From an uncultured delta proteobacterium (GTDB lineage: Bacteria > Desulfobacterota > Syntrophorhabdia > Syntrophorhabdales > WCHB1-27): a stretch of 64,000 nucleotides of DNA. This document shows, piece by piece, positions 39,665 to 56,705 of the stretch; position 1 is the first letter of the stretch; every line of letters starts with the position of its first letter. A program made the translations under genes and the position numbers. The stretch covers positions 332,213-396,212 of the forward strand of contig CAWFMJ010000023.1 of NCBI GenBank assembly GCA_963816715.1, in the 5' to 3' direction. Under the pieces are notes generated by a model, which made no database searches, was not told where the DNA came from, and was given only the letters and a program-made list of their open reading frames with translations.

Positions 39665-40111
39665 TTATCTCGAAAACTCCTCGTAGTTCTGCATCTTGTA
39701 TTGTCCCTCGGTCACCGTCGAAAAGTGAAAGATCGGCCGGTCGATGCGCCTCATGATCAGGGGACAATGAGTCATGCCGCCGGGGACGAATATGAGGCTG
39801 CTGCTCGTGATGATATGCTGCTCGTCCTCGAGCCAGAACTCGATCTCCGCGCCGAGATCGTAGGGGGCTTGCGAATTGCTGCCGAAAAAGCCGATGATCT
39901 CGTCTTCGGCGTGGGAATGGGCGTGGGCCATGGGCGTGTCTTCCTGCGGCGGCCGCAGGTACCAGGAGACGTTCATTTGAAAGGCGCCGTCGACCACCTG
40001 GTTGTCCATCCACAACACCCGCGTTGCCCACTTCGCGTACTCCGCCGCATACTCGGGCGAGAATCTGTTGGTCTTCAACTCACTCACGATGTGCTTCCCG
40101 TACTTCGACAT
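39665..40111 (-). CDS. cupin-fold protein
   Basis: 148 aa with a His-rich cupin motif (PMAHAHSHAEDEIIGFFG...IFVPGGMTHCP). It is the last gene of the leftward operon. Confidence 0.6.
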   Translation of the reverse strand: MSKYGKHIVSELKTNRFSPEYAAEYAKWATRVLWMDNQVVDGAFQMNVSWYLRPPQEDTPMAHAHSHAEDEIIGFFGSNSQAPYDLGAEIEFWLEDEQHIITSSSLIFVPGGMTHCPLIMRRIDRPIFHFSTVTEGQYKMQNYEEFSR

Positions 40112-40302: not shown

Positions 40303-41523
40303 TTATCGCTGGCCCCAACCCGGCGCCAGCTTGAGCTTATAGCCGCCGGCGACGGCAGGGTAAAAGAGCATCTGCTTTCCATCCCACCATTGATTGGCGG
40401 TGCTGGAAAAGAGGGCCAGGCCGGTCTCGTCGAATTTCAGATCGCCCATGACCGTTTGTTTGTACTCGGCGTTGCGGAACGCGTTCCTCACCGCGGTTTT
40501 GTCATAGGACTGAGCCCTTTCGATCGCCATGAACAGGGTTTGAGCCGTGCCGTAGAAGGCGCCAATGCTGACGGAGCGCTTGCCGAACTTGGCGGTATAG
40601 CGCTGTCCAAGCTCTTTGCAGAGCGGATAAGGAAAGTCTTCGGACCAGAATCCGTCGCATATGACGTAGTTGGCGTCTTTCCCCAGGGCGTTGGCAACTT
40701 CGATGGCCCAGGTTCCCTTCCAGCCGTGCAGGTACTTGACGTTAAGTTTCGATTCCTTTATTTGGCGGACGAGCGTAATGGCGTCCGTGGGGGCGCCGTA
40801 GAGCAGGATGGCATCCACGTTTTTCGCCTTCATTTTGAGGATCTGCGAGGAATAGTCCTTCGCGCCGATGGCCCACGGCTCATCAACGGCAAAAGTGTAG
40901 CCGTGTTCCTTCGCATGAGCCCGGAAACCCCCTGCAAAGGCAGCGCCGTCGGGGCTGTCTTCCATCAGCAGGGCGACATTCTTCGGTCTTTCCTCTTTCT
41001 TCAGCATTGTCTCCCAGACCACAAAGGGGACGTCTGAAGCGCCTCCCGCGGAAAAGAACATGAGGGAGGACCATTGGTACTTCTGGGGAACCCACATCTC
41101 CGGCCAGCACGTGCTCGTATGGTAAAACATCTGGTACTTCTCCGCCGTGTTGCAGGCAGGAATGCTCATCGTCGCCGAGTGGGTGCCGAGCATCAAGTCG
41201 ACCTTGTCTATCTTGGCCAGCTTTTCTATGGCCGCAGCCACCTTAGCCGGCTCGCTCTCGTCGTCCGCGGTGACCAGCTTTATGGGCAGTTTCTTCCCGG
41301 CCGACTTGATGAAAATGCCGCCCTTTTTGTTCCAGTCCGCCACCGCCTGCTCGTAGGCCCATTTCAACTCCAGCCCGTCCGGCGCAAGAGGTCCGGTCAT
41401 AGAGATAGGAGCGCCGATGAGAATCTCGTTCTTCGCGGCCCCCGCCGGCCCCGAAAACAGCAAGCACACCATGAGAACGGAAAAACAGAACCCAAGCCAC
41501 AACAAAACTTTCTTCCCCTTCAT
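40303..41523 (-). CDS. ABC transporter substrate-binding protein (LivK-type fold)
   Basis: ORF 40303..41574 trimmed to the ATG at 41521-41523 (MKGKKVLLWLGFCFSVLMVCLLFSGPAGA, a signal peptide). Confidence 0.9.
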   Translation of the reverse strand: MKGKKVLLWLGFCFSVLMVCLLFSGPAGAAKNEILIGAPISMTGPLAPDGLELKWAYEQAVADWNKKGGIFIKSAGKKLPIKLVTADDESEPAKVAAAIEKLAKIDKVDLMLGTHSATMSIPACNTAEKYQMFYHTSTCWPEMWVPQKYQWSSLMFFSAGGASDVPFVVWETMLKKEERPKNVALLMEDSPDGAAFAGGFRAHAKEHGYTFAVDEPWAIGAKDYSSQILKMKAKNVDAILLYGAPTDAITLVRQIKESKLNVKYLHGWKGTWAIEVANALGKDANYVICDGFWSEDFPYPLCKELGQRYTAKFGKRSVSIGAFYGTAQTLFMAIERAQSYDKTAVRNAFRNAEYKQTVMGDLKFDETGLALFSSTANQWWDGKQMLFYPAVAGGYKLKLAPGWGQR

Positions 41524-41583
41524 TCTCGTACCCCCCTTTGTTTGTTGATCGTACTCGTGGCGCCATCGCTCCACCTGTCTCTC

Positions 41584-42534
41584 CTAGCCCGCGACGGCCT
41601 CCTTCTTCCACAGCCTCACTATGCCGTTCGGCATGAAAAGCATGACAAGAATGATGATGATGCCGGAAAAAACGGGGTGGACTGAGGGGAAATAGATATT
41701 CGCCGCAGTAAAGACGCCCGTCATCATCAGCCCTCCTATAATCGGACCGACCACCGTTCCGCTTCCTCCGATCACGCACATGAGCACCGGATAGAGGGTC
41801 CATCTCAGGATGAGGAAGGCATCCGGGCTGACGTTAAAGAGGTAGTAGGCGTAGAGGCTTCCGCACATGCCGAAAAGGAAAGCGCTTATCGCGAAAGCGA
41901 GGACCTTGTACTTAAGGATGTGGATTCCGCTCGAGGCCGCCGCAGTCTCGTCCTCCCTGACTGCCACAAGGGCGAGGCCGACCCTTGACCTTGTCATGAA
42001 ATAGACCACCACTGTCGAGAGGAGAGCGAGGAAGAGGGCGGTCCAATAATGGGGTCTCATGGTCTTGTACGAGGTCGATGGCAGGATGATGCCGACGGGC
42101 CCGCCGGTGAACTGGCCTCCCTTGATGCACGCGACCTTCAGGATTTCCCCGAATCCGAGGGTCCCGAGGGCGAAGTAGTCGCCGTGGAGCTTGGAGAGCA
42201 GGGGTATGCCGATGCCGATGGCGAAGACCGCCGGGACGATGCCGCTCAGAGCCATCGTGACCGGGTCGAAGTAATAATGTCCCGTCCCGAACAGGTCCGA
42301 GCGCCAGATCATGGCCGTCGTATAGGCCCCAAGCGCGAAAAAGGCATGGGTGCCAAGGCTGATCTGGCCCGTGTACCCTGCGACGAGGTTCCATCCCTGC
42401 GCCAGCGTGATGTGGCAGAAAGTGAGGAACAGGAAATAAACAAGGTACGATTTCTCCGAGTCGGAGACGAACGGCACGAAGACGAGAAGCAGGACAACAA
42501 GAAGAAAGACGCCTATCGATCTCATATCGCGCAT
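41584..42534 (-). CDS. ABC transporter permease, LivM family
   Basis: 316 aa, polytopic, with GQISLGTHAFFALGAYT. Confidence 0.9.
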   Translation of the reverse strand: MRDMRSIGVFLLVVLLLVFVPFVSDSEKSYLVYFLFLTFCHITLAQGWNLVAGYTGQISLGTHAFFALGAYTTAMIWRSDLFGTGHYYFDPVTMALSGIVPAVFAIGIGIPLLSKLHGDYFALGTLGFGEILKVACIKGGQFTGGPVGIILPSTSYKTMRPHYWTALFLALLSTVVVYFMTRSRVGLALVAVREDETAAASSGIHILKYKVLAFAISAFLFGMCGSLYAYYLFNVSPDAFLILRWTLYPVLMCVIGGSGTVVGPIIGGLMMTGVFTAANIYFPSVHPVFSGIIIILVMLFMPNGIVRLWKKEAVAG

Positions 42535-42537
42535 GCC

Positions 42538-43431
42538 TTAAACCTTCTTGATTGACCGGACAAAGAGTCCCTCCGGCTTGAACAGCAACACGAGGAGAAA
42601 TATCGCATAGCCGACGGCGTCGGCCCACCCGCCGCTCACAAAAAAAGCCGCCCAACTCTCAAGCAGACCGAGGATGATGCCGCCGAGCAAGGCGCCGGAG
42701 ACGCTCCCCAAGCCTCCGAGGGCAAGAGCGATCATTGCCTTCAGACTAAAGATGAAGCCAAAATACGGATCGAAAGGATAAGTAGTCGAGAGCGCGATCC
42801 CCGCTATTCCCGACAAACCGATCCCGATGGCGAAGGTGACCATATTGACCCAATGGGGACCGATGCCCACGAGACTTGCCGCTCCCATGTCCTCTGAGGC
42901 CGCCCGCACGGCCTTCCCTATGAGAGTTTTTTTCAAGAAAAGCGTCACGCCCACGGTGGCGAGCATCGCCATTACGAATCCCATGAGGCGGGTAAACGAG
43001 ATATCGAGATTTCCCAAAGAGAGGGACGAAGAGGTGTACCCTGTGGATACCGACCTCGGATTCGGCGTCCACGCGACCGACATCAGATTTTCGAGAAGGA
43101 ACATAAGCCCCACGGCGATGAGGAGGCTGATGTTTTTGTCCTCCATTCTGATTGCCCTTCTGAAGAGCGTCTGGTACAAGCCGGCGCCGAGCGCCAGGGC
43201 GAAGGGAGCGAGGATAATCGTCGATAGGTAGGGGTCGATCTTGAGCAGCGTAAAGAGCCAGAAGCACAAATAGGCCATAAAGATGATGACGGCGCCCTGG
43301 GAGAGAAAAATGATGTGCATCGTCCCGAAGATAAGGCTGAGACCTATGGCGGCAAGGCCGTACATAGTGCCGAAGAGGATGCCGTTGACAAAGAGTTGAG
43401 AGAGGAGTCCGAAGGTCAGATAATCGAGCAT
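42538..43431 (-). CDS. ABC transporter permease, LivH family
   Basis: 297 aa with the N-terminus LSQLFVNGILFGTMYGLAAIGLSLIFG. Confidence 0.9.
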   Translation of the reverse strand: MLDYLTFGLLSQLFVNGILFGTMYGLAAIGLSLIFGTMHIIFLSQGAVIIFMAYLCFWLFTLLKIDPYLSTIILAPFALALGAGLYQTLFRRAIRMEDKNISLLIAVGLMFLLENLMSVAWTPNPRSVSTGYTSSSLSLGNLDISFTRLMGFVMAMLATVGVTLFLKKTLIGKAVRAASEDMGAASLVGIGPHWVNMVTFAIGIGLSGIAGIALSTTYPFDPYFGFIFSLKAMIALALGGLGSVSGALLGGIILGLLESWAAFFVSGGWADAVGYAIFLLVLLFKPEGLFVRSIKKV

Positions 43432-43436
43432 TAGTC

Positions 43437-44159
43437 TTACTCCAGTGTCCCCAGGTAGGCGTTCTGCACTTCAGGGTCGGCGAGGAGCTGTTCTCCGGGA
43501 CCCTCGAGAGCGATCTCTCCGGTCTTCATGACGTAGGCGTGATGAGAGACTTTCAAAGCCTGGTAAATGTTCTGTTCCACAAGAAGAATGGTCGTTCCTT
43601 TCCGGTTCAGCTCCTCGATCAACTCGAACATCGCGTTGACGACAAGGGGGCTTAAGCCCAGGGAAGGCTCGTCGAGCATCAGGATCTCCGGCTTGCTCAT
43701 CATCGACCGGCCGATTGCGAGCATCTGCTGTTCCCCTCCGCTGAGGGAGCCTGCAATCTGGCCATGTCTATTCTTGAGGATGGGGAACAGGTCGTAAACC
43801 TTATTCAGAGATTCCTGCAGGAATGGCCTGGCCCGGGAGACGTAAGCGCCCAGTTCGAGGTTCTCTTGCACGGTCAGCCGGCCAAAGAGCCTCCGGCCCT
43901 CGGGAACGAGGGAGATGCCCGCGTTCACCACCGCCTCCGGCTTAAGACCTAACAGATCCTTGCCGGCAAAGAAGATGCTGCCGCTCCCGGGACGCTTCAT
44001 TCCGGATACGGCCTTGAGGAGGGTCGACTTGCCGGCGCCGTTCGCGCCCACCAGGGCGACGATCGAGCCTTCGTCCACAGAGAGGGAGACGCCCCACAAG
44101 GCCTGAACGGCGCCGTAGGATACGGTTAAATTCCTAATTTCGAGCAAGGGTTTTTCCAA
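43437..44159 (-). CDS. ABC transporter ATP-binding protein, LivF family
   Basis: 240 aa with GANGAGKST, LSGGEQQML and LMLDEPS. Confidence 0.9.
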   Translation of the reverse strand: MEKPLLEIRNLTVSYGAVQALWGVSLSVDEGSIVALVGANGAGKSTLLKAVSGMKRPGSGSIFFAGKDLLGLKPEAVVNAGISLVPEGRRLFGRLTVQENLELGAYVSRARPFLQESLNKVYDLFPILKNRHGQIAGSLSGGEQQMLAIGRSMMSKPEILMLDEPSLGLSPLVVNAMFELIEELNRKGTTILLVEQNIYQALKVSHHAYVMKTGEIALEGPGEQLLADPEVQNAYLGTLE

Positions 44160-44877
44160 GATATGCCTCTATGACCTTCGCATCTTTCGCTATTTCTTCA
44201 GGCTTCCCATCGGCTATTTTCACCCCGTAATTAAGAACGGCAACCCTGTCGCAGGCGCGAAAGACGGCGTCGACCTTATGCTCGACCCACAGGATGGAGA
44301 TCCCTCTCTCTTCCCGGGCCCGCGTGATGACGTTGAGCAGCTTTTTGATCTCGGCCGCGTTCAATCCAGCCATCGGCTCATCGAGGAGCGTCACCGTAGG
44401 CGACGAGGCGAGGGCCCGTGCGACTTCGACTAACCGACGGTCCGACAAGGTCAGGTTGGAGGCGAGAACGTTCTTCTTCTCCTCTATTTCCACGATCTTC
44501 AAGGCAGCCATCGCCCTCGCCCTCGCACCCTTGGCGCCGCCGCCGCAGCCGTACACGGCGCCGACCATCACATTGTCGAAGGCCGTCATCTTGTTGAAAG
44601 TCTTCACGAGTTGATAGGTCCTGGAAATTCCCATATGGCACAGAGTGTGAGGCGGCGCGCCCGTAACCTTTTTCCCGTTGAGAAATACATCGCCCCGCTG
44701 CGGTCGGCACAGCGAGCTGATCACGTTGAAAAGGGTAGATTTGCCGGCGCCGTTGGGACCGATGAGACCGACCAGTTCTCCCTTGTTCAGCGACAGGCTC
44801 ACATCGGTGAGTACCATAAGCCCGCCGAAGGACATGTAAATCCCTTCTACCCTCATTAACGCGGCATCATCGGCCAT
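44134..44877 (-). CDS. ABC transporter ATP-binding protein, LivG family
   Basis: ORF 44134..45090 trimmed to the ATG at 44875-44877 (MADDAALMRVEGIYMSFGG), which has GAGGG upstream. It has GPNGAGKST and LLDEP. Confidence 0.9.
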   Translation of the reverse strand: MADDAALMRVEGIYMSFGGLMVLTDVSLSLNKGELVGLIGPNGAGKSTLFNVISSLCRPQRGDVFLNGKKVTGAPPHTLCHMGISRTYQLVKTFNKMTAFDNVMVGAVYGCGGGAKGARARAMAALKIVEIEEKKNVLASNLTLSDRRLVEVARALASSPTVTLLDEPMAGLNAAEIKKLLNVITRAREERGISILWVEHKVDAVFRACDRVAVLNYGVKIADGKPEEIAKDAKVIEAYLGKTLARN

Positions 44878-44891
44878 ACGAACCCTCGCGG

Positions 44892-45677
44892 TTACTTTGC
44901 ACAGATCCCTCCATCGGTCACGAGCACCTGGCCGCACATGTAGTTCGAGCCGGCGGAAGCGAGGAAAACAGCGGCGGCCTTCAATTCCTCCGGTTGCGCT
45001 TCCCGTCCTATCGGTATCCAGGCGCGAATCGTCTTCATGAACTCGGGATCGTCGTAGCCTCCCAATTTTGTCACGTAAAACCCCGGGCAAAGGGCGTTGA
45101 CGTTGATGCCATAGGGCGCATATTCCAGCCCCAGCTCACGGGTAAGGTTCACTACGGCGCCTTTTGCGCTGCAATAGGCAGGGGCGGGTATCACCGCCGA
45201 AGAACCGCTCAGTCCCCAGATGGAGGCGACATTGATTATCTTTCCGCTCTTTTGCTGCACCATCACTTTGAGCGCCTCTCTTGCACAGTAGAACGCGCCC
45301 TGGAGATCCACCGAGATAACCCTGTTCCACCACTCTGTCGTGTATTCGTGCAGGGGTTTCGGGACGTCGTTGGTATTGTCGGAAACGCCCGCGTTATTGA
45401 AGAGGACGTCGAGCCGGCCGAATTCGTCGACCGTCTTTCTCACCATGGCGACGACGTTCTCCTCATCTGTCACGTCGCAGAAGACCACGAGGGCCTTTCT
45501 TCCCATTTGCCTGACCTTCCGGGCAGTTTCTTCGAGGGCGGGCAGATTCCTGGCGGCACAGACGACATTGGCGCCGGCTTCTGCCATGGCCTCGGCAAAG
45601 GCTGCGCCCAGGCCGCTGGATGCGCCGGTGACCAGCGCCGTCTTATCGGTTAGATCAAACATGTGCGGATATTTCAT
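44892..45677 (-). CDS. short-chain dehydrogenase/reductase
   Basis: ORF trimmed to MKYPHMFDLTDK (GGAGGG upstream). It has TGASSGLG, NNAG and YCSAKGA. Confidence 0.9.
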   Translation of the reverse strand: MKYPHMFDLTDKTALVTGASSGLGAAFAEAMAEAGANVVCAARNLPALEETARKVRQMGRKALVVFCDVTDEENVVAMVRKTVDEFGRLDVLFNNAGVSDNTNDVPKPLHEYTTEWWNRVISVDLQGAFYCAREALKVMVQQKSGKIINVASIWGLSGSSAVIPAPAYCSAKGAVVNLTRELGLEYAPYGINVNALCPGFYVTKLGGYDDPEFMKTIRAWIPIGREAQPEELKAAAVFLASAGSNYMCGQVLVTDGGICAK

Positions 45678-45773
45678 GTTCCCTCCGTGCGGCATCGCCA
45701 ATTACCGGGGCTCAGCGCCCCCTCCCGGTGGAACGAGAGACCGCCGTACTGAACGGAAAGGCTCTGACAGGTT

Positions 45774-47459
45774 TTACTTGTCGACCACATAGACGACCCC
45801 CTGGTTCCCGTCCACGAGTATCCACTGGCCTGTCTTGATTTTCTGGGTGGCCTCGACAGTCCCGGAGACCGCCGGAACTCCGAATTCTCTAGCCATGATG
45901 ACCGGGTGGGAAAGAGCGCCGCCGCCGTCGGTCACAAGACCCCTTATGAGGCTGAAGACGACCGTCCAGGCAGCCGAGGTGCCGGGAGCGACGAGTATCT
46001 CTCCCGGTTCTATCTGACCCAGGTCCTTCGCGCTCATGATCACCCGGGCCTTCCCTTCGGCAATCCCCGGCGCCGCCGCTGCGCCGTAGAGGTCGGCTCT
46101 GAGCTCTTTCCTCACGATGGGAACCTGCGTCGAAACGGAAAGGGTGGGGTCGCTCTTGAGCACGGCCTGCGCCTGGGATATGTCGCCGTAGAAGGGCGCC
46201 GGCTCGATTTCCAGGTATTTCTGCCAGAGGGTCTTTCGCTTTTCCACGTAGGGGCGGAGGTTGATCCGGCCCATCGGTATTGCGGCCTTTCTGATCTCGT
46301 TGGGATGGAGGAAAAAGACGTCGTCTGCTTCGTCAATGCATCCCGCTGCCGCAAAGCGCCGACCGAACTCGCCGATGATCCATCTTCCCAGGGCGCCTGC
46401 ATAGAAATCGCAGAAATAGGTATGGTCTTCGCTCCAAAACGCCGCGTTCTGACCCCCTTTGACAAGCAGCGCGAAGGCCTCTTTCTGGGCCTCCGGGCAT
46501 TTCGCCAGCACAGCTTTTTCTGCTTCTTCCCGCTCCTTAACCACCCGATCCCGCTCGGCATCAAAGGGAAAGACGTCGGACCTCATAAGAAATCGAATCC
46601 GTTCGAGGGCAAGCTCAGGCTTTTCGATCCAGGCCGGCGTGTCGTAGGCGTGCATTCTCTCACATCTCCAGCCGTGATCAATAAGAAAGGCGTCCAGCAA
46701 GTCGAGCCACTTCTTGCCTTGGGGCGTTTTTGTCAGCTCCTTCAAGCAATCGCCGTTTCCCTCATTTGCATCGAAGACCGGCTGAAGCCCGCAGTCGACG
46801 GCTTGTCTGCCCAATTCCCAGAGTCCTCGGACAACCGACACATCCTGGTTCTCGGTTCCGCCCATCAGGGCGGTGAAATTCGGATCGATGGCGGCGTCGA
46901 CGCCGAACAGATTGCGCCAGACCTGTTGCAGTATGCCGCTGATGTAGTAGACCGCCATCAGCATGATCATGTGGGTTTCGCCTACTTTTCTGCTGATTAC
47001 GTAAGCGAAATCGAGGAAGAAGGTGAGGAGCTCGTTGTTGCTTAAGTGCTCGATGTCCTTCCACTGCCTCAGTCCCCGGGATTCCTTCGCCTCCTTGTAC
47101 ATCTGGAGGAGGTCCGTCTTGAGGGGATCCCAAACGCCGTAAAAGTCTTCCAGGAACGGCTTGATCTTCTTCCGGAATACGGGCTCCCGGGCCTTGGCCT
47201 CCTCAGGCGTTGTCCTGATTCCGGATATATAGGGATATCCGTTGACGAATCGCGAATCCCATCCATGAGTGGTGGGAAGAGACAAGGTTTCGGCGGCCCA
47301 TCGGAAGCCATAATAGAACCATTGCCATCCAATGCCCATGTACGTCGGCTTAAGAGGGGGCCTGCCGTGGATTACGTCGCAGAGAAGCACGCCGTATTCC
47401 TGAGGGTCCTTCTCGTCGTCGAATTCATAGAAACTCAGGTCATACGCATCGTGTATCAT
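45774..47459 (-). CDS. PEP-utilising-enzyme family protein, phenylphosphate synthase alpha (PpsA)-like: unique N-domain + phospho-His swivel domain
   Basis: 561 aa. The C-terminal ~80 aa read ILVAPGTSAAWTVVFSLIRGLVTDGGGALSHPVIMAREFGVPAVSG, the mobile His domain. There is no ATP-grasp part. Confidence 0.75.
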   Translation of the reverse strand: MIHDAYDLSFYEFDDEKDPQEYGVLLCDVIHGRPPLKPTYMGIGWQWFYYGFRWAAETLSLPTTHGWDSRFVNGYPYISGIRTTPEEAKAREPVFRKKIKPFLEDFYGVWDPLKTDLLQMYKEAKESRGLRQWKDIEHLSNNELLTFFLDFAYVISRKVGETHMIMLMAVYYISGILQQVWRNLFGVDAAIDPNFTALMGGTENQDVSVVRGLWELGRQAVDCGLQPVFDANEGNGDCLKELTKTPQGKKWLDLLDAFLIDHGWRCERMHAYDTPAWIEKPELALERIRFLMRSDVFPFDAERDRVVKEREEAEKAVLAKCPEAQKEAFALLVKGGQNAAFWSEDHTYFCDFYAGALGRWIIGEFGRRFAAAGCIDEADDVFFLHPNEIRKAAIPMGRINLRPYVEKRKTLWQKYLEIEPAPFYGDISQAQAVLKSDPTLSVSTQVPIVRKELRADLYGAAAAPGIAEGKARVIMSAKDLGQIEPGEILVAPGTSAAWTVVFSLIRGLVTDGGGALSHPVIMAREFGVPAVSGTVEATQKIKTGQWILVDGNQGVVYVVDK

Positions 47460-47493
47460 CGCTCCTCCTTGGGATAGTCGGCGACTGGCCCCG

Positions 47494-48516
47494 CTACGAT
47501 ACCGTCAGGAAGCCCACCATCATGTCTACTATCTGATCTGACGCGCTCTTTTTCGCTATCACTACAGGCCTGGTCTGGAGTAGAACTACCGGAGGAAAGG
47601 CGGCATCGGAAGAAACCGCCCATTCAATATCCTGAGGAAGGCCGAAGTGGGACTCCAGGCGGATTGCAAAACCGGCAATCTTCCGGACCTCGTCGTCGGA
47701 GAGGCAGAACCGCCCCGATTTCTCTTCGGGGACTTTCTCTTCCACAACGCCGCGCGTTGCGCCCACAATGACCTTCTCTTTTTTCCCGAGCGTTCTTTCC
47801 AGGATCTTCAACGATTCTTTTTCGAGCACCCAACGGTCCGGCATCAGCTCGCCGCTCACCACACTCTCTCCCAGACCCCAGTTAGCTTCAACAATGACTT
47901 TTGCCAGGTCTCCGGTATTCGGGTCCGCGCTAAAGGCAATCCCCGCCGAACGGGCTTGCACCATCGCCAGCACCGCAACGCCTATCGGCTCTTCACGTAT
48001 TTCCATCCCCTTCTTCAACCGGAAGGCCAGCGATCTCGGGTTAAATGTGCTTGACCACACCTTTTTGATCTTGTCCAACAAGTCCGCGGGGCCTTTTACG
48101 TTGAGGTAGGTTTCATATTGTCCCGGATGGCTGACCGTTCCCGCAGACCGCGTCGAAACAGCGGCGTCGGCCATTCCGCATCGGCTGCACAGGGCCTGAT
48201 AATAGTCCAGGATTGAGCTCTTCATCTCGGCCGGCATCTTTTTGGATTCGATAATTTGGCGTACAGACTGGCTTAGTCGGCTAATGCCTGCGATATCGTC
48301 TACTGACGGCTTTCTGCTGCCCGCGTATTCGGAGATTTGCTCATCGGCGCCCGTAAGTTTGAGGAACATGTGGTAGGCATCTACGGAGAGGGCGAAGCCA
48401 CAGGGGACCGGAAGCCCTATCTTCGCCATCTCCCCCAGGTTGGCGCACTTCTTGCCGACAAGCTCGTTGCAATCGGCGCCAAGGTCGTCGAGCCAATGCA
48501 CCCAATTCTCTGGCAT
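47494..48516 (-). CDS. PEP synthase N-terminal (ATP-binding, PPDK_N) domain protein, PpsB-like
   Basis: 340 aa with LVGKKCANLGEMAKIGLPVPCGFALSVDAY. It lacks His and TIM-barrel domains and sits directly upstream of the PpsA-like gene. Confidence 0.75.
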   Translation of the reverse strand: MPENWVHWLDDLGADCNELVGKKCANLGEMAKIGLPVPCGFALSVDAYHMFLKLTGADEQISEYAGSRKPSVDDIAGISRLSQSVRQIIESKKMPAEMKSSILDYYQALCSRCGMADAAVSTRSAGTVSHPGQYETYLNVKGPADLLDKIKKVWSSTFNPRSLAFRLKKGMEIREEPIGVAVLAMVQARSAGIAFSADPNTGDLAKVIVEANWGLGESVVSGELMPDRWVLEKESLKILERTLGKKEKVIVGATRGVVEEKVPEEKSGRFCLSDDEVRKIAGFAIRLESHFGLPQDIEWAVSSDAAFPPVVLLQTRPVVIAKKSASDQIVDMMVGFLTVS

Positions 48517-48640
48517 CCCCGCCCCCCATTTTTTTTATGCCTCTTTCGCGTTTCCGGCTCGTCGTCCCCCGCGACGAACCGGCGCCTGGAACCCTCCGGT
48601 TGTTTCTCTTTTCGTCCATTTTAGAAAGCTCCGACAGGAC

Positions 48641-48675
48641 AGTCAACACAAAGTTTCTTATGACTTCATAAGGCT
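48641..48675 (+). promoter_or_regulatory. conserved palindromic box A (LysR-type T-N11-A site)
   Basis: AGTCAACACAAAGTTTCTTATGACTTCATAAGGCT. The core CTTATGA-C-TTCATAAG is at 48657-48672. It lies between the divergent genes 48516(-) and 48784(+). Confidence 0.55.
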
Positions 48676-48783
48676 AAGGCGCCGGGCATATCGCCTTAAG
48701 CCTCGATCGCCCGTTTTCGCTCCTTCTTGACAAGGGGACTCACGGAGTGCCACCATAAGGGAATCCTGCTAAGGCGAGGGACC

Positions 48784-49392
48784 ATGGACCTGGGGGCGCT
48801 GAAAACAAAAGTCGATCGGGATCGAACGGCCGTTGCGGTTATCGACATGCAGAGAGATTACTGCTGCGAAGGAGGAATCTTTCATCGAAGGGGGTTCGAC
48901 ATAATCCCGATTCGCGAGCTGGCGGACAGGCTGAGCCTTTTCTTGGACAGGGTCCGGCCGGCGCTCAAGTGCATCGTCCATCTGAAAATGACCAAGCTGG
49001 ACGAGCTTTCTTCTCCGGCGGCAAAGGAGCAGTACGACCGGCTGGGGATCGATAGGAAATACGATCCTGACTATGCCGGATTCTACGGAGTTTTTCCCCG
49101 CCGGGGCGACGTGGTGATCGCTAAATACAGCTACTCGGGCTTCGCCTCGACGTATCTCGATCGGTTTCTCCGCTCCAGGGGAATAAGGACCCTCGTCATC
49201 ACCGGGATCGCGACAAATGTGTGTGTGGAGTCGACGGCCCGCGACGCTTTCATGCGAGACTACTTTGTGGTCGTTCCCTCCGATCTCACCGAGGGGACAA
49301 GCGAGGAAGCCAAGAAGTGGTCGCTCTCAAACATCGACGGTTTCTTCGGCGAGGTCGTTGATTCCGAAGATTTGCTTCACTGTTGGCGTTGA
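48784..49392 (+). CDS. isochorismatase-family cysteine hydrolase
   Basis: ORF trimmed to the ATG at 48784 (MDLGALKTKVDRDRTAVAVIDMQRDY). It has ITGIATNVCVESTARDA (catalytic Cys). Confidence 0.85.
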   Translation: MDLGALKTKVDRDRTAVAVIDMQRDYCCEGGIFHRRGFDIIPIRELADRLSLFLDRVRPALKCIVHLKMTKLDELSSPAAKEQYDRLGIDRKYDPDYAGFYGVFPRRGDVVIAKYSYSGFASTYLDRFLRSRGIRTLVITGIATNVCVESTARDAFMRDYFVVVPSDLTEGTSEEAKKWSLSNIDGFFGEVVDSEDLLHCWR

Positions 49393-49431
49393 AGGGATGG
49401 CAACCTCTCCGACAATTGTCGACGGATTTTC

Positions 49432-50379
49432 TCACGCGGCGGGCGCCGTACTCGTCTGAACCTCCTCCACGCCGCATTTGAAGTGTTCCCTGAAGAGGCG
49501 AATGAATTCCTCCAGGGTCGGCGACATTACCCTGTCTCCCCGATTGACCAGTATATAGACGTCCAGCTTTACCTCGCCGTCTATCACCGGCACAACCTTC
49601 AGCTTCCCGCCGCCGAGGTCCGCTTCCACGTTGGGACGGAACATGAAGGCTACGCCTTTTTTCTGACGGGCGAGCTCTTTGGCGCACTCGATATGGTCCA
49701 CCTCGGCGCCGATCACGGGCTGCAAACCTCGCTCTCTGAAATGGGAAAAGGCAAAATCACGCGCGGCCGATCCCGCCGACTGCATGATCAGGGGGTGGCG
49801 CGAGAGATCTTCCCAGGTCAGCCCTGAGCCGTTTGCGCCTAAAACATACTCGGGGCTCGCAACGAAAACCATTTCATCAACCTGCGGCATCCGGTAGACA
49901 GTCAAATGCTCGGAGTTCTCCACGAGACCGCTCACGAAACAGATGTCATGCCTGAAGTTGAGGAGGTCCTTTATCAGATGCGACGAATGGCCTTCCCCTA
50001 CCGAGACTTGCACGGAAGGATAACGCTCCTTGAACTTGTCGATCAGACCCATCAGCAGCAGCATCAATGTTCGGGCCACGCCGATGTTGAGGTTGTTCAG
50101 TCGATAACTCTTCAGGAAGCTCTCCATCGACATCGCCTGTCGCACGAAGCCTTCCGCATACGCGAAGAATCTTTCTCCGGCGGTGGTGAGGTAGGCCCTT
50201 TGTTTCCTGATCGCAAAGAGCTTTATGCCGAATTGAGCTTCGAGAGATCGTACTTGTTGGGTTACGGCCGATTGGGTGATAAAGAGTCGCTCCGAAGCAG
50301 GGCCAAACCCCCCCTCCCTCGCCACGAAGTAGAACGTGACAATGTGCTGAAGGTTCACTTGCGGAGGTCTCATCCCCAA
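49432..50379 (-). CDS. LysR-family transcriptional regulator
   Basis: 315 aa with the HTH HIVTFYFVAREGGFGPASERLFITQSAVTQQVRSLE. It is divergent from the UPF0261 operon. Confidence 0.9.
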   Translation of the reverse strand: MGMRPPQVNLQHIVTFYFVAREGGFGPASERLFITQSAVTQQVRSLEAQFGIKLFAIRKQRAYLTTAGERFFAYAEGFVRQAMSMESFLKSYRLNNLNIGVARTLMLLLMGLIDKFKERYPSVQVSVGEGHSSHLIKDLLNFRHDICFVSGLVENSEHLTVYRMPQVDEMVFVASPEYVLGANGSGLTWEDLSRHPLIMQSAGSAARDFAFSHFRERGLQPVIGAEVDHIECAKELARQKKGVAFMFRPNVEADLGGGKLKVVPVIDGEVKLDVYILVNRGDRVMSPTLEEFIRLFREHFKCGVEEVQTSTAPAA

Positions 50380-50417
50380 TCCCCCCCTTTTTTCGAGGAT
50401 AGCACCTATCGTTTATT

Positions 50418-50455
50418 GAGTCAACACAATAAGCTTATGATTTCATTAGAAAGTC
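50418..50455 (+). promoter_or_regulatory. conserved palindromic box B
   Basis: GAGTCAACACAATAAGCTTATGATTTCATTAGAAAGTC. The core is at 50434-50449, 39 nt from the lysR-type start and 92 nt from the 50547 start. Confidence 0.55.
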
Positions 50456-50546
50456 TGAATTGATCTGAATTCCCAACCGTCTACAATATCGAACAGGGGT
50501 GTTTCCGCGCCCGATCCTCGACAATTGAACTGAAAAGGGGTGCGTC

Positions 50547-51809
50547 ATGCAAAAAACGATCGTCATCATTGGAACGGTGGACACGAAAGGCGAACAATTG
50601 CGGTTCCTCCGGAAGTGTATTGCTTCCCGGGGCCACCGGGCGATCATTATGGATGTCAGCAGCGGCGGGAAGCCCGGCTTCGAGGCGGATATTGCTCCGC
50701 GCGAGATTGCCGGCCTCATGGGCAAGGACATCGACCAATTGATCGCAGTCGGCGACCGATTTACCAACGGTGAAGTGATGACCGCAGGGGCGCGGCAGAA
50801 GCTGCTCGATCTTCTCGCGGCAAATCAGCTCGACGGCGCCGTGGCCCTCGGCGGCTCCACTATCGCCCTCCTCGCGGCCCGGGCCATGCAGGCCCTTCCT
50901 TTCGGCATCCCCAAAGTGCTCGTGGTGCCCGCGGCCATGCCGGTCTACCTCCATCAATGGTTCGACGCCTCGGACATTCTCGTGATGCAGATCATCATGG
51001 AAATGGCTGGAATGAACGATCTTCTCACCCATTCCATCGCCCAGGCGGCGGGCCTGATTTCGGGTATGGTGGAAGAAAGCAAGCCATACACGTCGCTCCA
51101 GCTGCCGCCCAACTCCGTCGCTATAACAGAAGTCGGCTTTTGCCCGAAATGCCCGGTGCAGGTCGAAAAACTCCTCGAGGCCGAAGGCTTCAACGTCTTC
51201 ACGTTCCACGCCCAGGGGGTGAGCGAGAGGGCGATGGACAGGCTGGTGGGGGAAGGCTTCCTCGACGGCGTCGTCGATATCGTGCCCACCGGAATAATAG
51301 AAGAGATGTTCGGCGGCAACAGAGCAGGGGGAATGGAGAGAATGGATGCCTTCGCGACGAGGGAAATACCGCTCGTGGTCTCCTTTTCCGTCGTTAACCT
51401 GACGGGTTGCGGACCCACCAGAAAAAACAGGGAGAAATACGCTTCCCGCGTCCAGGTGCCGATCGATGCCCTACGCTCGATGACGCGCTACGACGACGAC
51501 GAATTGAAAGAGGCGGCGCCGGTCTATGCCCGGAAACTCAACGCGGCCAAGGGACCCGTAACGATTGTTCTGCCCCTCCGGGGCTGGTCCGCTCTCGACA
51601 GAGAGGGATCCCTCCTTTACAACCCCGAGCAGGACCGGGTCTTCGTGGATGCCCTCAAGAAGGATCTGGATCCCCGCATTCCCATAGTCGAGGTGGACGC
51701 GAACCTTGAGGATATGGAATTCTCGAGGGCCCTGGTCGGCGCGTTTAAGGAGATCTGTGGGAAGCCCCGCATAGAGTCATCGGGAGGCGCGCAATGGCTA
51801 TCGCAATAG
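50547..51809 (+). CDS. UPF0261 (Tm-1-like ATP-binding) family protein
   Basis: 420 aa with the N-terminus MQKTIVIIGTVDTKGEQLRFL, the family hallmark GTxDTKG. Confidence 0.75.
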   Translation: MQKTIVIIGTVDTKGEQLRFLRKCIASRGHRAIIMDVSSGGKPGFEADIAPREIAGLMGKDIDQLIAVGDRFTNGEVMTAGARQKLLDLLAANQLDGAVALGGSTIALLAARAMQALPFGIPKVLVVPAAMPVYLHQWFDASDILVMQIIMEMAGMNDLLTHSIAQAAGLISGMVEESKPYTSLQLPPNSVAITEVGFCPKCPVQVEKLLEAEGFNVFTFHAQGVSERAMDRLVGEGFLDGVVDIVPTGIIEEMFGGNRAGGMERMDAFATREIPLVVSFSVVNLTGCGPTRKNREKYASRVQVPIDALRSMTRYDDDELKEAAPVYARKLNAAKGPVTIVLPLRGWSALDREGSLLYNPEQDRVFVDALKKDLDPRIPIVEVDANLEDMEFSRALVGAFKEICGKPRIESSGGAQWLSQ

Positions 51810-53074
51810 TTGGAATGCTCGACGAAAGAGAAGAAGCGCTCGCGCTCATTAAGGCGCAAATAGAAGAAAAAGCCTTCAGGGTCTGCCTCATCGACGTCAG
51901 CATCGGGGCGGGGGCGATAGCTCCCCGGCTCCGGCCGGACGTGAGCGCGGCCGAAGTGGCTGAATTGGGAAGGACATCCGGCGCCGACGCCGGGCCCGGC
52001 TCAACCCTGCAGACGATTGCCGCCCTCATGGGAATAGGACTGAAAAGGAAGGTTTCGGCCCTTTACGAGTCGGGAGACCTCGAGGGCATCATTGGCATCG
52101 CCGGGTTGACAGGCACGCTGATCACGCTCCAGGCGATGCAAGCGTTGCCCTTCGGGCTGCCGAAGCTCCTTCTCTCAAGTGCCGCGGCCATGCCTGCCCA
52201 TGCCGGTCGGCTTGCGGATTTCTTTGCCCTCAAGGATGTCACCGTCATGCACACGGTGGTCGATACGGTGGGCATGAACCACTTGGTGAAGGCTCTCGCA
52301 ATAAACGGCGCCAATGCAATAGCAGGCATGGCAAAAGCCTACAACCCATCGGCCGGCGCCGAAAAGCCCATGCTGGCCCTCACGGAATTCGGCTTCTGCG
52401 ACAAAGGCGCGCACTATGTTCGCGAGGCGTTGAAGAGCGAGTACGAAGTCGTTTCGCTCCTGGCCACGGGCTTGGGGGACAGGGCGCTTCTCGATCTCAC
52501 GAAACAAGGTTATTTCCGGGCCTTCATCGACCTCGTCCCCTGCTCGTTCAGCGAGTATCTCCTGGGTGGAAACAGAGCGTCGGGTCCCGACCGGCTGGAC
52601 GTCGCAAGAGACCAGCCTATCCCCTATGTTTTCTGCCCCGGTGGGTTCGACATGATCAGTTGCGGTCCGTTGGAGAGACGGGACGCCGGCGATCCACTTT
52701 GGGTCTCAAGGAAGCTCTCTCAGAGAAAGCTCAACGTGAAGGACAGCCTCAGGGCGGAGGCGAGGACGAGCGCTGACGAAATGAAGGGGCTGGGAGCGGC
52801 GGTGGCGGAAAAACTGAACCGTTATCCGCACAAGGAGCGCGTCAAGGTTGTCATCCCCGGAAAGGGATTTTCCAGCCTGAGCGTCGAAGGGGCCGATCTT
52901 TTTGATCCGGCCGCAGACAGCGCATTCACCGAGGCCCTCAAAGGGGCGCTCGACCCTTCGATTGCCCTCGCCGAGGTAGACGCCGATATCAACGATCCTG
53001 CGTTCGCCCGCGCTATAGCGGCGGTGTTGCGTGAGATTCCGGGGCGAGAGATAATTCGCCAGAGGCAACGATGA
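51794..53074 (+). CDS. UPF0261-family paralogue with degenerate N-terminal motif
   Basis: 426 aa. It is collinear with the previous protein (ALPFGLPKLLLSSAA versus ALPFGIPKVLVVPAA) but starts MAIAIVGMLDEREEAL. It overlaps the upstream gene by 16 nt. Confidence 0.7.
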   Translation: MAIAIVGMLDEREEALALIKAQIEEKAFRVCLIDVSIGAGAIAPRLRPDVSAAEVAELGRTSGADAGPGSTLQTIAALMGIGLKRKVSALYESGDLEGIIGIAGLTGTLITLQAMQALPFGLPKLLLSSAAAMPAHAGRLADFFALKDVTVMHTVVDTVGMNHLVKALAINGANAIAGMAKAYNPSAGAEKPMLALTEFGFCDKGAHYVREALKSEYEVVSLLATGLGDRALLDLTKQGYFRAFIDLVPCSFSEYLLGGNRASGPDRLDVARDQPIPYVFCPGGFDMISCGPLERRDAGDPLWVSRKLSQRKLNVKDSLRAEARTSADEMKGLGAAVAEKLNRYPHKERVKVVIPGKGFSSLSVEGADLFDPAADSAFTEALKGALDPSIALAEVDADINDPAFARAIAAVLREIPGREIIRQRQR

Positions 53075-53138
53075 GCAGAAAAAAAGCGGCCCGCGCACTT
53101 AGTCGGCGTTGAACCGCCAAAGCCAAGGGGAGGACAAA

Positions 53139-53934
53139 ATGGCGGAACAGACGTTGCTCGGGAAGACGGCAATAGTTACGGGAGGCGGCAAGGGTTTGGG
53201 GAAAGGCCATAGCCTTTGAGCTGGCCGCAAGGGGGGCGGCCCTTGTCTTAGCGGACGTGGATGCGGCTTCGGCGAAAGAGGTCGCCGGGGAAATCGGCGA
53301 GAAGGCCGGCAGGGCTATGGCTCTCGCGTGCGACCTTCGGAAGGAAGATGATGTGCGAGACATGGTGGAAAGGACGATGTCGACGTTTTCGAGGATCGAC
53401 GTGCTTGTCAACAACGCGGGGCTCGGAAAGGTCGCGCCTTTGTGGGAGACCCCCACGGAAGTCTGGGACAACACGATAGCCGTGAACCTGAGGGGCTCCT
53501 TCCTTTGTATTAAGCACGTCATTCCACACATGATCCAACAGAAGTCGGGGCGGGTCATCAACATCTCGTCCGCCGTCGGCAGACAGGCCCAGCCCCTTAT
53601 GGCAGCCTACGGCGTGTCAAAAGCAGGGCAGATCGCGATGACGGTGGCATTGGGAAAAGAGGTCGCGCCTTACGGCATCACGGTGAACGCCGTTTGCCCC
53701 GGACCCGTTGAGACCCCCTGGTGGGACGGCAATCGCGTGGCTCTTTCGTCGGTCCTGAACGTTCCGGAGAGCGACGTAACAAACTGGTTCATGGAGCAGA
53801 AGCAGGCAATCAAGGTTCCCTTGAAGCCCGAGGACATCGCGCGCGTAGTCGCCTGGTCGACGTCTGACGACGCGAGAATGATGACAGGACAGGCAATCGG
53901 CATCGATGGCGGCTACGCCTTTCCTACCTACTGA
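53139..53934 (+). pseudogene. short-chain dehydrogenase/reductase with apparent 1-nt insertion near the 5-prime end (or sequencing error)
   Basis: The ATG at 53139 (AAGGGGAGGA upstream) gives MAEQTLLGKTAIVTGGGKGLGK and then a stop. Removing one G at ~53205 restores AIAFELAARGAALVLADVDAAS, joining ORF 53257..53934 (NNAG, YGVSKAG). Confidence 0.7.
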
Positions 53935-54094
53935 TTGGGGCGGCGAGCAGTGCGCGCGCCGGGAATGAAAAGATCTGCAAACACGCCCTCAGAGCCAAGG
54001 TGAAACTTGCATCGACAACGCGAGCCAGGCGCTAAAGAAAGGCGGCCGGGGTCCGCACTGGCGTCCCGGCCGGCCGAATTCGTCGCCGAAAGGG

Positions 54095-54892
54095 TCAGAA
54101 GACGACGTGTTGATGACAGCTCACCGGCATCGTCACGCCGGTCACCCCGCTCGATTCGTCGGAAGCAAGAAAGAGAGCGACGGCCGCGCACTCCTCTTCG
54201 GTCACAATTCTCTTGAGCGAGTTGTTGACCGCAAGCATGTCGAGCCATTCTTGCAGGGTTTTGCCTGTCTCCGCGGCCCGTTTTGAGAGTATATTTTCGA
54301 TGCGTTCTCCCCGCACCGGGCCGGGACTAAGGGCATTGACCCGTATGCCGAAAGGACCGTTCTCGACGGCCAGGGTCTCGGTGAGACCGATAAGGCCCAT
54401 CTTGGAGCAGCAGTAGGCCGCTCGAAGGGGATACCCCGATCTGCCGTCTCCCGATCTGCCCCCTTCGGAAACGACGTTAATGATGGCGCCGCTCTTCTGG
54501 GGAATCATGTGTTTCAGGGCCTGGCGGGAGCAGAGCATGCTTCCAGTAAGATCGATGGCCAAGGTCTCCCCCCACTGGGCCAGATCCATGTCGACCACCC
54601 TGGAGGTCGGCCCCGAAACGCCGCTGTTGTTCACCAGGATGTCGACCTTGCCGAACTGTTTGACCGTCTCCGAGACAAGCCGCTCCACTTGCTTCTCGTC
54701 GGACACGTCCGTTTGCAGGTAGGCTGAAACGCCGCCTTTGCCCGCTATCTCTTTGCACGTCGCTTCCAGGGCCGATACCGTCCTCGACGCGATCATCACC
54801 TTTGCGCCTTCCCTCGCATAAGCGAGGGCGACGGCCCTGCCTATTCCTTTGCCTCCACCGGTAACGATGGCCACTTTTCCTTCCAGCCGCAT
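54095..54892 (-). CDS. short-chain dehydrogenase/reductase
   Basis: 265 aa with TGGGKGIGRA, NNSG and YCCSKMG. Confidence 0.9.
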   Translation of the reverse strand: MRLEGKVAIVTGGGKGIGRAVALAYAREGAKVMIASRTVSALEATCKEIAGKGGVSAYLQTDVSDEKQVERLVSETVKQFGKVDILVNNSGVSGPTSRVVDMDLAQWGETLAIDLTGSMLCSRQALKHMIPQKSGAIINVVSEGGRSGDGRSGYPLRAAYCCSKMGLIGLTETLAVENGPFGIRVNALSPGPVRGERIENILSKRAAETGKTLQEWLDMLAVNNSLKRIVTEEECAAVALFLASDESSGVTGVTMPVSCHQHVVF

Positions 54893-54951
54893 ACTTCCTC
54901 CTTGATTTGATGTGTGAAGAATTCCGCCCGGGCCCTCCGCGAAGCGACCGG

Positions 54952-56379
54952 CTAATGTCCGGCCGTCTTCCCCTTTGCCGCGAGCATCTCATCTATCTCC
55001 TTGTCTATCATGACGTACCTCAGTATGAACTCCTCGTCGGGGACGGAAGAGCCGATCCCCATGCTCTCTCTTATCTCTTTCGTGGTAAGCTCGGGGAACT
55101 CCCGGCTGAATACCTCTCTTGCCCGGGGACTTGCCGTGATCTTTTCCATCACGTCGGCCTTGATGGGTACGGGAGGCTGCCCGAACCATCCTGCCGCATA
55201 CTGGAGCACTCCTTCCGGCACCACCTTGTACCGCTGCCGGTTTATCACGTTCATCGTCGCCTGGGCGGCCACAAATTGCGACAACGGCGTCACCATGACG
55301 GGGTATCCCAACTCCTCCCGGACGCGAACGACCTCGTCCACGACCTCGGACAGGCGCATTTCCTGTTTCATTTCCATGAGCTGTCGCTTGAGAGTGGTCA
55401 TCATGCCGCCGGGGATTTGATGCTGATAGTAGTAAACGCTATGCTCGACCGGGGCGCCGATGGGATAGTTCCGGGAATGCGCGATGCCGCTCAGTTTTTC
55501 CGATATCTGTTCAAGGCATGAACGGTCTATGCGCGAGTAGGTCTTCTCTTTGCCCTGCGCCCATGAAGGCAGCAATTGGACCATCCTTCGGTCCGCTGAA
55601 GCTGCGTAGTCCATATGGGGAAGGTTGTCGAGGAGGTTGAGCGCCGAGGGAAGCGATGTCCCGTACGCAAGGGGCGGGATGGCCGTGTGGATTGTGTCGA
55701 CGCCCAATCGGATCGCTTCCAGGGCGCAGGCCGTCCCGAGCCCCGTGTTGCAGTGGGGGTGCAATTCGAGAGGCTTTCCGCCGGAGGCCTTCAAGAGTGC
55801 GGGCACGAGAGTGCGCACCCGCTCGGGCGTCAAGAGACCCCCCTGGTCCTTCAGATAAAGACCGTCCACATCGGGCGACGAGACGACGCCGGCGGCTATC
55901 TTGCCGTAATACTCGTCGGTGTGGACCGGGCTTATGGTGAAGCACAAGGCGCAGACCATCTCCTCTATTCCGGCGGCCTTGCACATTCTGGCCACCTTGT
56001 GGATCAAGGTCGCATCATGAGAGGCGTCAACGAGCCAGATCCGTCTTATGCCGTTTGCAGCGGCCCTTTCCACCACGAGGTTCAGCATGGAATCGGGCAG
56101 ACGCTTAAAACCGATGAAACGGCGTCCGCTCGTCCCCAGGCTGAGAGGCGTGTTCGGCATCGCCTTGACTCCCTGGCGGATTGCTTCCCACGGGTCTTCT
56201 TTATGGTAGCGCACATAAACGCCCATATGGGCGCTGCTCGTGAAGTCTATAGCCTTAAATCCCGCCGCGTCCAATGTCGGCGCCATCGATTTCATGTCCT
56301 CAGTGTTTACGCCTGTCGCCCCCCACAGACTCTGGTTGCCGTCCCTTAGACTGGTATCGATCAACCTTATTTCACCCAT
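54952..56379 (-). CDS. carboxyltransferase of the oxaloacetate decarboxylase alpha / transcarboxylase 5S type, no biotinyl domain
   Basis: ORF 54952..56412, likely starting at MGEIRLIDTSLRDGNQS. It has LYLKDQGGLLTP, LELHPHCNTGLG and the PYC_OADA-like part QHQIPGGMMTTLKRQL. It ends without an AMKM lipoyl-like domain. Confidence 0.8.
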   Translation of the reverse strand: MGEIRLIDTSLRDGNQSLWGATGVNTEDMKSMAPTLDAAGFKAIDFTSSAHMGVYVRYHKEDPWEAIRQGVKAMPNTPLSLGTSGRRFIGFKRLPDSMLNLVVERAAANGIRRIWLVDASHDATLIHKVARMCKAAGIEEMVCALCFTISPVHTDEYYGKIAAGVVSSPDVDGLYLKDQGGLLTPERVRTLVPALLKASGGKPLELHPHCNTGLGTACALEAIRLGVDTIHTAIPPLAYGTSLPSALNLLDNLPHMDYAASADRRMVQLLPSWAQGKEKTYSRIDRSCLEQISEKLSGIAHSRNYPIGAPVEHSVYYYQHQIPGGMMTTLKRQLMEMKQEMRLSEVVDEVVRVREELGYPVMVTPLSQFVAAQATMNVINRQRYKVVPEGVLQYAAGWFGQPPVPIKADVMEKITASPRAREVFSREFPELTTKEIRESMGIGSSVPDEEFILRYVMIDKEIDEMLAAKGKTAGH

Positions 56380-56458
56380 TGGCGCCCCCCCTTTGCCTAG
56401 CATTTCCTGCAATTGACAGAGAACCGTTTTTCACCATTATGACCGAGGCTTAGGGGAC

Positions 56459-56494
56459 GTTCAACTCAAAGTTTCTTATGAATTTATAAGGTTC
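56459..56494 (+). promoter_or_regulatory. conserved palindromic box C
   Basis: GTTCAACTCAAAGTTTCTTATGAATTTATAAGGTTC. The core is at 56475-56490, between the divergent carboxyltransferase and ubiX genes. Confidence 0.55.
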
Positions 56495-56705
56495 TCGACA
56501 TAATGCTTCACCGTTCCCTCATCCGGGATGCGCGCGGAGAAATGGAAGAATGGGAAGATTGGCCGGAGGGACGTGTTGATTGCAGGCAGGTTTTGTCTGA
56601 TAATAGCTGAATGGCCCAGAACACGGGGTAGGGCGGTCGGCATGCGAGAAGGCAGCGGAATGGGTCCTGGCACAGTCTCCCGTAAAGGGATAGAGGGGGC
56701 TAAGA

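Follow-up and report, generated by a model that had tools for sequence, protein, structure and literature searches.

Background

Promoters of aromatic catabolism that are governed by LysR-type transcriptional regulators (LTTRs), such as those of BenM/CatM, CbnR and ClcR, combine a T-N11-A recognition dyad with an activation site near the -35 hexamer, and their lysR genes are divergent and autoregulated. In the degradation of acetovanillone and 4-hydroxyacetophenone, a kinase (AcvAB/HpeHI or MarK) acts together with a biotin carboxylase (AcvCDE/HpeCBA) and a phosphatase (AcvF/HpeD); MarK, an ATP-dependent kinase that accepts acetovanillone and other aromatics and is encoded in an operon with a biotin-dependent carboxylase, provided the first catalytic function for the UPF0261 family (PMC12624787). 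Our literature searches found no LysR regulator described for acetovanillone (Acv/Hpe/MarK) or phenylphosphate genes. Here we analyze a palindromic box that occurs three times in a 64-kb stretch of DNA (the window) from an uncultured delta proteobacterium, beside the gene for a LysR-type regulator and in the promoter regions of genes for a Pps-like dikinase, UPF0261 proteins and a carboxyltransferase.

The window resembles the LTTR promoters in several respects. Its LysR gene is divergent from a catabolic operon, the intergenic region they share contains an A/T-rich T-N11-A dyad upstream of a predicted -35, the site is repeated at other operons of the pathway, and it overlaps the promoter region of the regulator itself. 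From the sequence and its conservation we consider it probable that the box is a LysR operator, joined at a fixed distance to a promoter, that regulates three operons and lysR.

One element in three promoter regions

The boxes lie at 48641-48675 (A), 50418-50455 (B) and 56459-56494 (C). They were first noticed in an inspection of the DNA without database searches (the sequence-only reading), and its coordinates proved exact when checked against the sequence. The inverted repeat at the center of each box shows no mismatch in A (CTTATGA-CT-TCATAAG) and one each in B and C. A 30-nt pattern, TCAACNCAANNNNNCTTATGANTTNATNAG, matches A and C with no mismatches, and it has no match in 100 dinucleotide-preserving shuffles of the window. 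When the window was scored with a weight matrix built from 11 sites, three places reached 45.7, 46.4 and 47.6 bits, and everything else fell below 12 bits. All three copies within the 64 kb are in promoter regions. As the sequence-only reading had proposed, the boxes are thus a real shared cis-regulatory element and not a product of chance: the shuffles are empty, the matrix has three peaks only, and the element is conserved elsewhere.

The 16-nt core alone, at up to two mismatches, has eight matches in the window against 0.66 expected, and six of the eight are the three boxes on both strands. We considered the other two (666-681 and 59719-59734) as further sites and rejected them as chance matches, because they lie inside open reading frames (ORFs), have neither the linker nor the -35 described below, and score less than 12 bits. 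The dyad also fits the T-N11-A rule, in the form TTATGAnnTCATAA, in all three boxes; the sequence-only reading was correct on this point, but the rule is too loose to serve as evidence alone.

A polar module of proposed operator and promoter

The element is a one-directional module that consists of a 16-bp palindrome (CTTATGA-NN-TCATAAG), a 10-nt linker (AAAnTnTGnn), a sigma-70-like -35 (TTGnnn), about 17 nt, and a -10 hexamer. Thirty-one distinct sites, those of the window included and the others taken from related genome loci, give as consensus in the direction of transcription CTTATGAATTCATTAG-AAAnTnTGnn-TTGAAn-(about 17 nt)-tAtAAt. Information content at these sites peaks at the dyad, AAA, T.TG and TTG, drops to zero, and climbs again at the -10. 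The center of the dyad is 18.5 nt from the -35 hexamer, or at approximately -53 from the predicted transcription start. In the window, the starts are predicted near 48611 and 56429 (minus strand) for boxes A and C, and near 50494 (plus strand) and 50389 (minus strand) for the two sides of box B.

Adding the metagenome loci gives 60 distinct sites. A -10-like hexamer at a spacer of 16-18 is found in 35 of the 60 on the box side and in 10 on the mirror side, with mean matches of 4.43 and 2.57, respectively. A mirror-side TTG (-35) occurs at a single site of the 60, box B of the window, where it belongs to the predicted promoter of lysR; the coupling of that promoter to the regulator may have been gained specifically in this lineage. 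Because the -10 and the TTG are one-sided, the box is a polar operator-promoter module. Its TCAAC end does not belong to a symmetric operator: read on the other strand it is the -35 hexamer, and each box therefore serves one promoter.

We scanned positions 48400-56800 for promoters and found six promoter-like sites, compared with 2.5 ± 1.6 in shuffles. At box A, the palindrome CTTATGACTTCATAAG (48657..48672, minus strand) is a perfect 7+2+7 dyad and a proposed LysR recognition site, centered at about -53.5 of the predicted start. The promoter part (48618..48656, minus strand) comprises the linker AAACTTTGTG (48656..48647), the -35 TTGACT (48646..48641), a 17-nt spacer and the -10 TAAAAT (48623..48618); it has 10 of 12 consensus matches and is predicted to drive the minus-strand Pps-like operon. 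An imperfect inverted repeat, GGCTAAGGCG ... CGCCTTAAGCC (48672-48681 / 48692-48702), abuts this palindrome on the side of the isochorismatase gene. It could be a second operator or a hairpin, and none was seen at boxes B and C.

Box B has a palindrome, CTTATGATTTCATTAG (50434..50449), that is common to two divergent predicted promoters. The canonical promoter part (50450..50487, plus strand), with the linker AAAGTCTGAA, the -35 TTGATC (50460-50465), a 16-nt spacer and the -10 TACAAT (50482-50487), is predicted to drive the plus-strand UPF0261 operon. On the other flank lies the predicted lysR promoter (50396..50433, minus strand), with a -35 TTGACT (50424..50419), a 17-nt spacer and an extended -10 TGcTATCCT (50401..50396). 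This promoter is 1 nt nearer the palindrome than in the canonical module, and it is what the sequence-only reading had aligned as the TCAACACAA block of box B. That plus-strand alignment needs a 1-nt deletion, while the fixed-spacing pattern matches box B on the minus strand only (50463->50434, TCAATTCAGACTTTCTAATGAAATCATAAG, 46.4 bits). The three boxes, reported as having the same orientation, therefore do not: canonical B is inverted relative to A and C. We also noted that an 11-mer, AGTCAACACAA, is identical at 48641-48651 in box A and at 50419-50429 in the lysR flank of box B.

At box C, the palindrome CTTATGAATTTATAAG (56475..56490, minus strand), again a proposed LysR site, is followed by a promoter part (56436..56474, minus strand) with the linker AAACTTTGAG, the -35 TTGAAC (56464..56459), a 17-nt spacer and the -10 CATAAT (56441..56436), which is predicted to drive the minus-strand operon of the carboxyltransferase and a short-chain dehydrogenase/reductase (SDR). 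A strong plus-strand promoter-like site, TTGACA-16-CATTAT (56413-56440, 10/12), lies within the 5' untranslated region of the carboxyltransferase on the opposite strand. It would read through box C towards ubiX, approximately 260 nt away, and if it were the ubiX promoter, a regulator on box C would hinder ubiX and not activate it.

The sequence-only reading had assigned up to six transcription units to the boxes, with a symmetric operator controlling both flanking units in all three divergent regions, including the isochorismatase gene and ubiX. The dyad itself is symmetric, both flanks of box B carry predicted promoters, and a protein at box C could block transcription of ubiX from the 56413-56440 site. 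The conserved module, however, is one-sided, with a mirror-side -35 in only 1 of 60 sites, and the best candidate promoters of the isochorismatase gene (TTGACA at 48728) and of ubiX (56576-56604) would put the dyad near -99 and -128. Among the related loci, no box points at a homologue of either gene. Six units are too many because these two genes lie on the palindrome side, where there is no promoter module, and have no box directed towards them. We therefore judge control of all six unlikely; three operons and autoregulation of lysR are supported.

An RNA element was also considered and rejected. Rfam at gathering thresholds gave no match in the window, and the dyad, being upstream of its promoter, is not transcribed in the direction of that promoter.

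Conservation with the regulator and its target genes

A search with an alignment of LysR homologues recovered 30 orthologous loci (45-56% identity) and 50 paralogous loci (22-32%), where a single-protein query had recovered one orthologue. Two orthologous loci are cut inside lysR and were left out, leaving 28 that could be assessed. The metagenome-assembled genomes (MAGs) from which the orthologous loci come are labeled Syntrophorhabdales, Syntrophus, Desulfomonilaceae, Syntrophobacteraceae, Desulfatiglandales and Nitrospiraceae. A scan of such loci with a motif model had been put forward as a check by the sequence-only reading, and it shows the element in most orthologous loci and its near-absence from the paralogous ones: there are 25 matrix matches of at least 18 bits in 290 kb of orthologue loci, versus one in 496 kb of paralogue loci. 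In 17 of the 28, lysR is preceded within about 150 nt by a box whose promoter end faces away from the gene, the same arrangement as box B of the window, and three further loci keep the dyad alone.

We also searched by motif alone. A pattern with 21 specified bases, for which we calculate a chance expectation of approximately 0.3 over the 596 Gb scanned, identified nine genome loci among GTDB representatives, which do not include the genome of the window itself. Seven of the nine contain either the orthologous LysR gene or homologues of target genes in the window. A second pattern identified 29 metagenome loci, and in 18 of these the LysR orthologue is directly behind the box. The position of box B between lysR and a divergent target, described as classic in the sequence-only reading, thus recurs in 17-20 of 28 orthologous loci and in 18 of 29 loci found by motif only.

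At the metagenome loci, every box-adjacent gene recognized as homologous to one in the window stands on the promoter side, ahead of the box. The usual divergent operon elsewhere encodes a carboxyltransferase with a biotinyl domain, a biotin carboxylase, a UPF0261 protein, and PpsB-like and PpsA-like proteins. Other genes ahead of boxes include CoA ligases, MFS and LIV transporters, an acyl-CoA dehydrogenase, a GntR gene and close homologues of the SDR at 54095. For example, the box-controlled carboxyltransferases of Syntrophorhabdales loci (such as L014:2430-5658) are 36-38% identical to that of the window and contain a biotinyl domain, and the next gene encodes a biotin carboxylase. With the same families on the promoter side of the box elsewhere, the proposal that the Pps-like, UPF0261 and carboxyltransferase units belong to one system holds.

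Back-to-back boxes, about 100 nt apart and with promoters pointing outward, were found in two contigs (L010 and L032) of one MAG labeled Syntrophus. In L010 (3460-3489, plus strand, and 3587-3616, minus strand) the pair is flanked by CoA ligase and carboxyltransferase/SDR genes. In L032 (4410-4439, plus, and 4535-4564, minus) a 148-aa ORF and then a UPF0261 gene lie one way, and a GntR-family gene lies the other way. These pairs are a true bidirectional version of the module.

The same comparisons bear on whether the boxes might have no dedicated regulator and be either copies of a small repeat, mobile or REP-like, or just a strong promoter that includes an UP-like element. They are short palindromic repeats in intergenic DNA, and their AAA tract, at about -45, is reminiscent of a proximal UP subsite. 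Against this, the likeness ends at the module edges. The carboxyltransferase proteins of the window and of L010 are 67% identical and the 30-nt boxes differ at one or two positions, while the flanks do not align; in an alignment of the box C region with three related loci, a phylogenetic footprint, only the dyad, linker, -35 and -10 are conserved. Position and polarity with respect to lysR and the targets are kept across distant lineages, only three copies are present in 64 kb, all of them in promoter regions, and the 7+7 dyad is conserved in both halves, which is not a property of an UP element. We find an explanation of this kind hardly credible.

A different transcription factor encoded elsewhere, for example of the GntR/FCD or TetR type, might instead recognize the dyad, in which case the link to lysR would be synteny only. 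A GntR/FCD gene is indeed directly ahead of one box in L032, and several boxes are far from any lysR. No other regulator recurs beside the box, however, while the LysR orthologue is adjacent in 18 of the 29 motif-only and 17-20 of the 28 orthologue loci; paralogous LysR loci are without the box, and the dyad fits the LysR T-N11-A form. We regard this alternative as quite improbable. The link of the box to the LysR protein comes from comparison with other genomes, and on that evidence the neighboring LysR is most likely the best candidate binder of the palindrome, in agreement with the sequence-only reading.

Proposed mechanism

The regulator (49432-50373, minus strand) is a protein of 313 aa with HTH_1 (PF00126, 2.5e-16) and LysR_substrate (PF03466, 1.2e-35) domains, and 61-76 nt separate its gene from the dyad of box B. 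Orthologues hardly differ in the N-terminal DNA-binding region. The best E-values against PDB were 6.5e-21 (3fzv), 7.6e-21 (6m5f), 3.8e-16 (5y2v, a Rubisco-operon regulator) and about 1e-11 to 1e-12 (CatM/BenM), and no NCBIfam cut-off was reached; by these comparisons it is no more than a distant relative of any LTTR with a solved structure. Neither this regulator nor its site was found described in our literature searches.

We infer that the 16-bp dyad CTTATGA-NN-TCATAAG is the recognition site of this regulator. The linker and -35 region would then be the place where the second dimer of the LysR tetramer, at an activation site, meets RNA polymerase. The protein would respond, probably to an aromatic substrate or pathway intermediate, by jointly controlling the promoters of box A (Pps-like dikinase, SDR and LIV-type ABC transporter), box B (the UPF0261 pair and SDR) and box C (carboxyltransferase and SDR). 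Since a regulator at box B would sit immediately upstream of the -35 of its own gene, lysR would be autoregulated. The geometry of the module favors activation.

Several observations weigh against this mechanism. The usual LTTR recognition site is at about -65, and the dyad center near -53 is closer to the promoter, though measured from promoters that are themselves predicted. No second dyad, as an activation site (ABS), was found by eye or by information content, though the AAAnTnTG linker and the -35 are conserved. Since both core hexamers, -35 and -10, match the consensus fairly well, transcription may not depend strictly on an activator, and repression without inducer is equally possible. 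Eight of the 28 assessable orthologous loci have no element upstream of lysR. Finally, the region is present in soil and peat DNA metagenome runs, and no RNA runs are among those that hold it; all promoter assignments are therefore consensus matches.

Genes of the window

The target unit of box A (40303..48516, minus strand) contains genes for the Pps-like dikinase, an SDR and an LIV-type ABC transporter, and we read it as a single operon because its genes are tightly spaced. Domain searches identified a PPDK_N subunit (47494-48516) and a subunit with a PEP-utilisers mobile domain (45774-47459), which together resemble a split phosphoenolpyruvate (PEP)-synthase-like dikinase. The SDR (44892-45701) and five LIV-type ABC transporter genes (40303-45090) lie on the same strand. 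A 148-aa ORF at the distal end of the unit (39665-40111, minus strand) had been called a cupin. It has no Pfam match at E 1e-3, and its His-rich motifs (HAHSHAEDE ... GGMTHCP) are compatible with a divergent cupin. On the palindrome side of box A is a gene of the isochorismatase family (48784-49392, plus strand), previously labeled a cysteine hydrolase.

The unit of box B (50547..53934, plus strand) consists of two UPF0261 (MarK/Tm-1-like) genes (50547-51809 and 51794-53074) and an SDR (53139-53934). The first UPF0261 protein matches PDB entry 9mpy, a 'UPF0261 domain-containing protein', at 5e-40 and Tm-1 at 7e-42. The SDR downstream of the pair has a frameshift: the N-terminal part, MAEQTLLGKTAIVTGGGKGLGK, and the remainder (AIAFELAARGAALVLAD...) are read in two successive frames, with the break near 53200-53210. 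One extra G in AAAGGCC is the apparent cause, and the gene may be a pseudogene or the result of an assembly error.

The unit of box C (54095..56379, minus strand) consists of a carboxyltransferase (54952-56379; HMGL-like and PYC_OADA domains, ATG at 56379) and an SDR (54095-54892), and UbiX is encoded beyond the box (56706-57287, plus strand). Start codons of lysR (50373) and of the carboxyltransferase (56379) were revised using the sequence, P0001 and G-rich ribosome-binding sites. Domain searches found no biotin carboxylase in the 64-kb window and no biotinyl domain on the carboxyltransferase. No UbiD-type phenylphosphate carboxylase was recognized among the scanned ORFs, where only ubiX was found.

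Upstream of the catabolic block are genes of a defense type, namely a DUF4062 + HATPase_c_4 protein (31848-33311, minus strand) and a protein with a TOTE conflict-system AEP primase domain and ResIII/DEAD helicase domains (36786-38513, plus strand). The first 38 kb of the window contain no marker genes for taxonomic placement.

Significance and comparison with known systems

Taken as a whole, the sequence-only reading is partly supported: the element, its candidate regulator and the linkage of three operons remain, and its symmetry, its common orientation and its six units do not. The regulatory design is an ordinary, textbook LysR one, and the regulator subfamily, the operator and the regulon are previously undescribed. 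The module is conserved in many uncultured anaerobic bacteria ahead of genes for aromatic-compound kinases and carboxylases. Conservation of the operator allows a DNA pattern alone to find members of the regulon in MAGs of uncultured anaerobic aromatic degraders, and the box brings together UPF0261 (MarK-like) kinases, Pps-like dikinases, carboxylases, CoA ligases and transporters as a single co-regulated set. For organisms that resist cultivation, this yields pathway hypotheses that can be tested, and it makes the regulator with its promoter a candidate biosensor part for an aromatic inducer.

The hosts of the box system are uncultured anaerobes, represented by Syntrophorhabdales, Syntrophus-like, Desulfomonilaceae and Syntrophobacteraceae MAGs. 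In contrast to the LTTR promoters described above, the dyad, linker and -35 in the window are conserved as a rigid 32-nt block, with a predicted center at about -53 and not -65, and the half-site is ATGA/TCAT where BenM/CatM have ATAC/GTAT.

The closest likeness in gene content is to the Acv/Hpe/MarK systems. At the level of domains only, a two-subunit PEP-synthase-like dikinase occurs together with UPF0261 proteins and a pyruvate-carboxylase-type carboxyltransferase, both in the window and in related loci. The window differs in that its carboxyltransferase is without a biotinyl domain and the 64 kb encode no biotin carboxylase, whereas the Syntrophorhabdales loci have both; moreover, its UPF0261 genes are paired, and SDRs, an LIV-type ABC transporter and ubiX are added. 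Because the biotin machinery is missing from the window, we do not claim membership in the Acv/Hpe/MarK pathway. Unlike the phenylphosphate system, no UbiD-type carboxylase was recognized among the window ORFs that were scanned. The split enzyme of the window, with its PPDK_N and mobile PEP-utilisers subunits, is nevertheless like phenylphosphate synthase PpsAB of anaerobic phenol degradation by its domains, and split enzymes of the PpsAB type occur in anaerobic aromatic degraders.

A further reading, which we hold less likely than not, is that the box marks an undescribed regulon of several lineages, in which a dedicated LysR subfamily would turn on the anaerobic breakdown of phenolic compounds by a 'phosphorylate, then carboxylate' route. 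This route would be run, in the lineage of the window, by a paired and possibly heteromeric UPF0261 kinase, a Pps-like dikinase and a carboxyltransferase without a biotin domain. If this is true, the near-invariant 32-nt operator-promoter block is a sequence tag for pathway genes in uncultured syntrophs, and the route of the window is a biochemical variant outside both the Acv/Hpe/MarK and the phenylphosphate paradigms.

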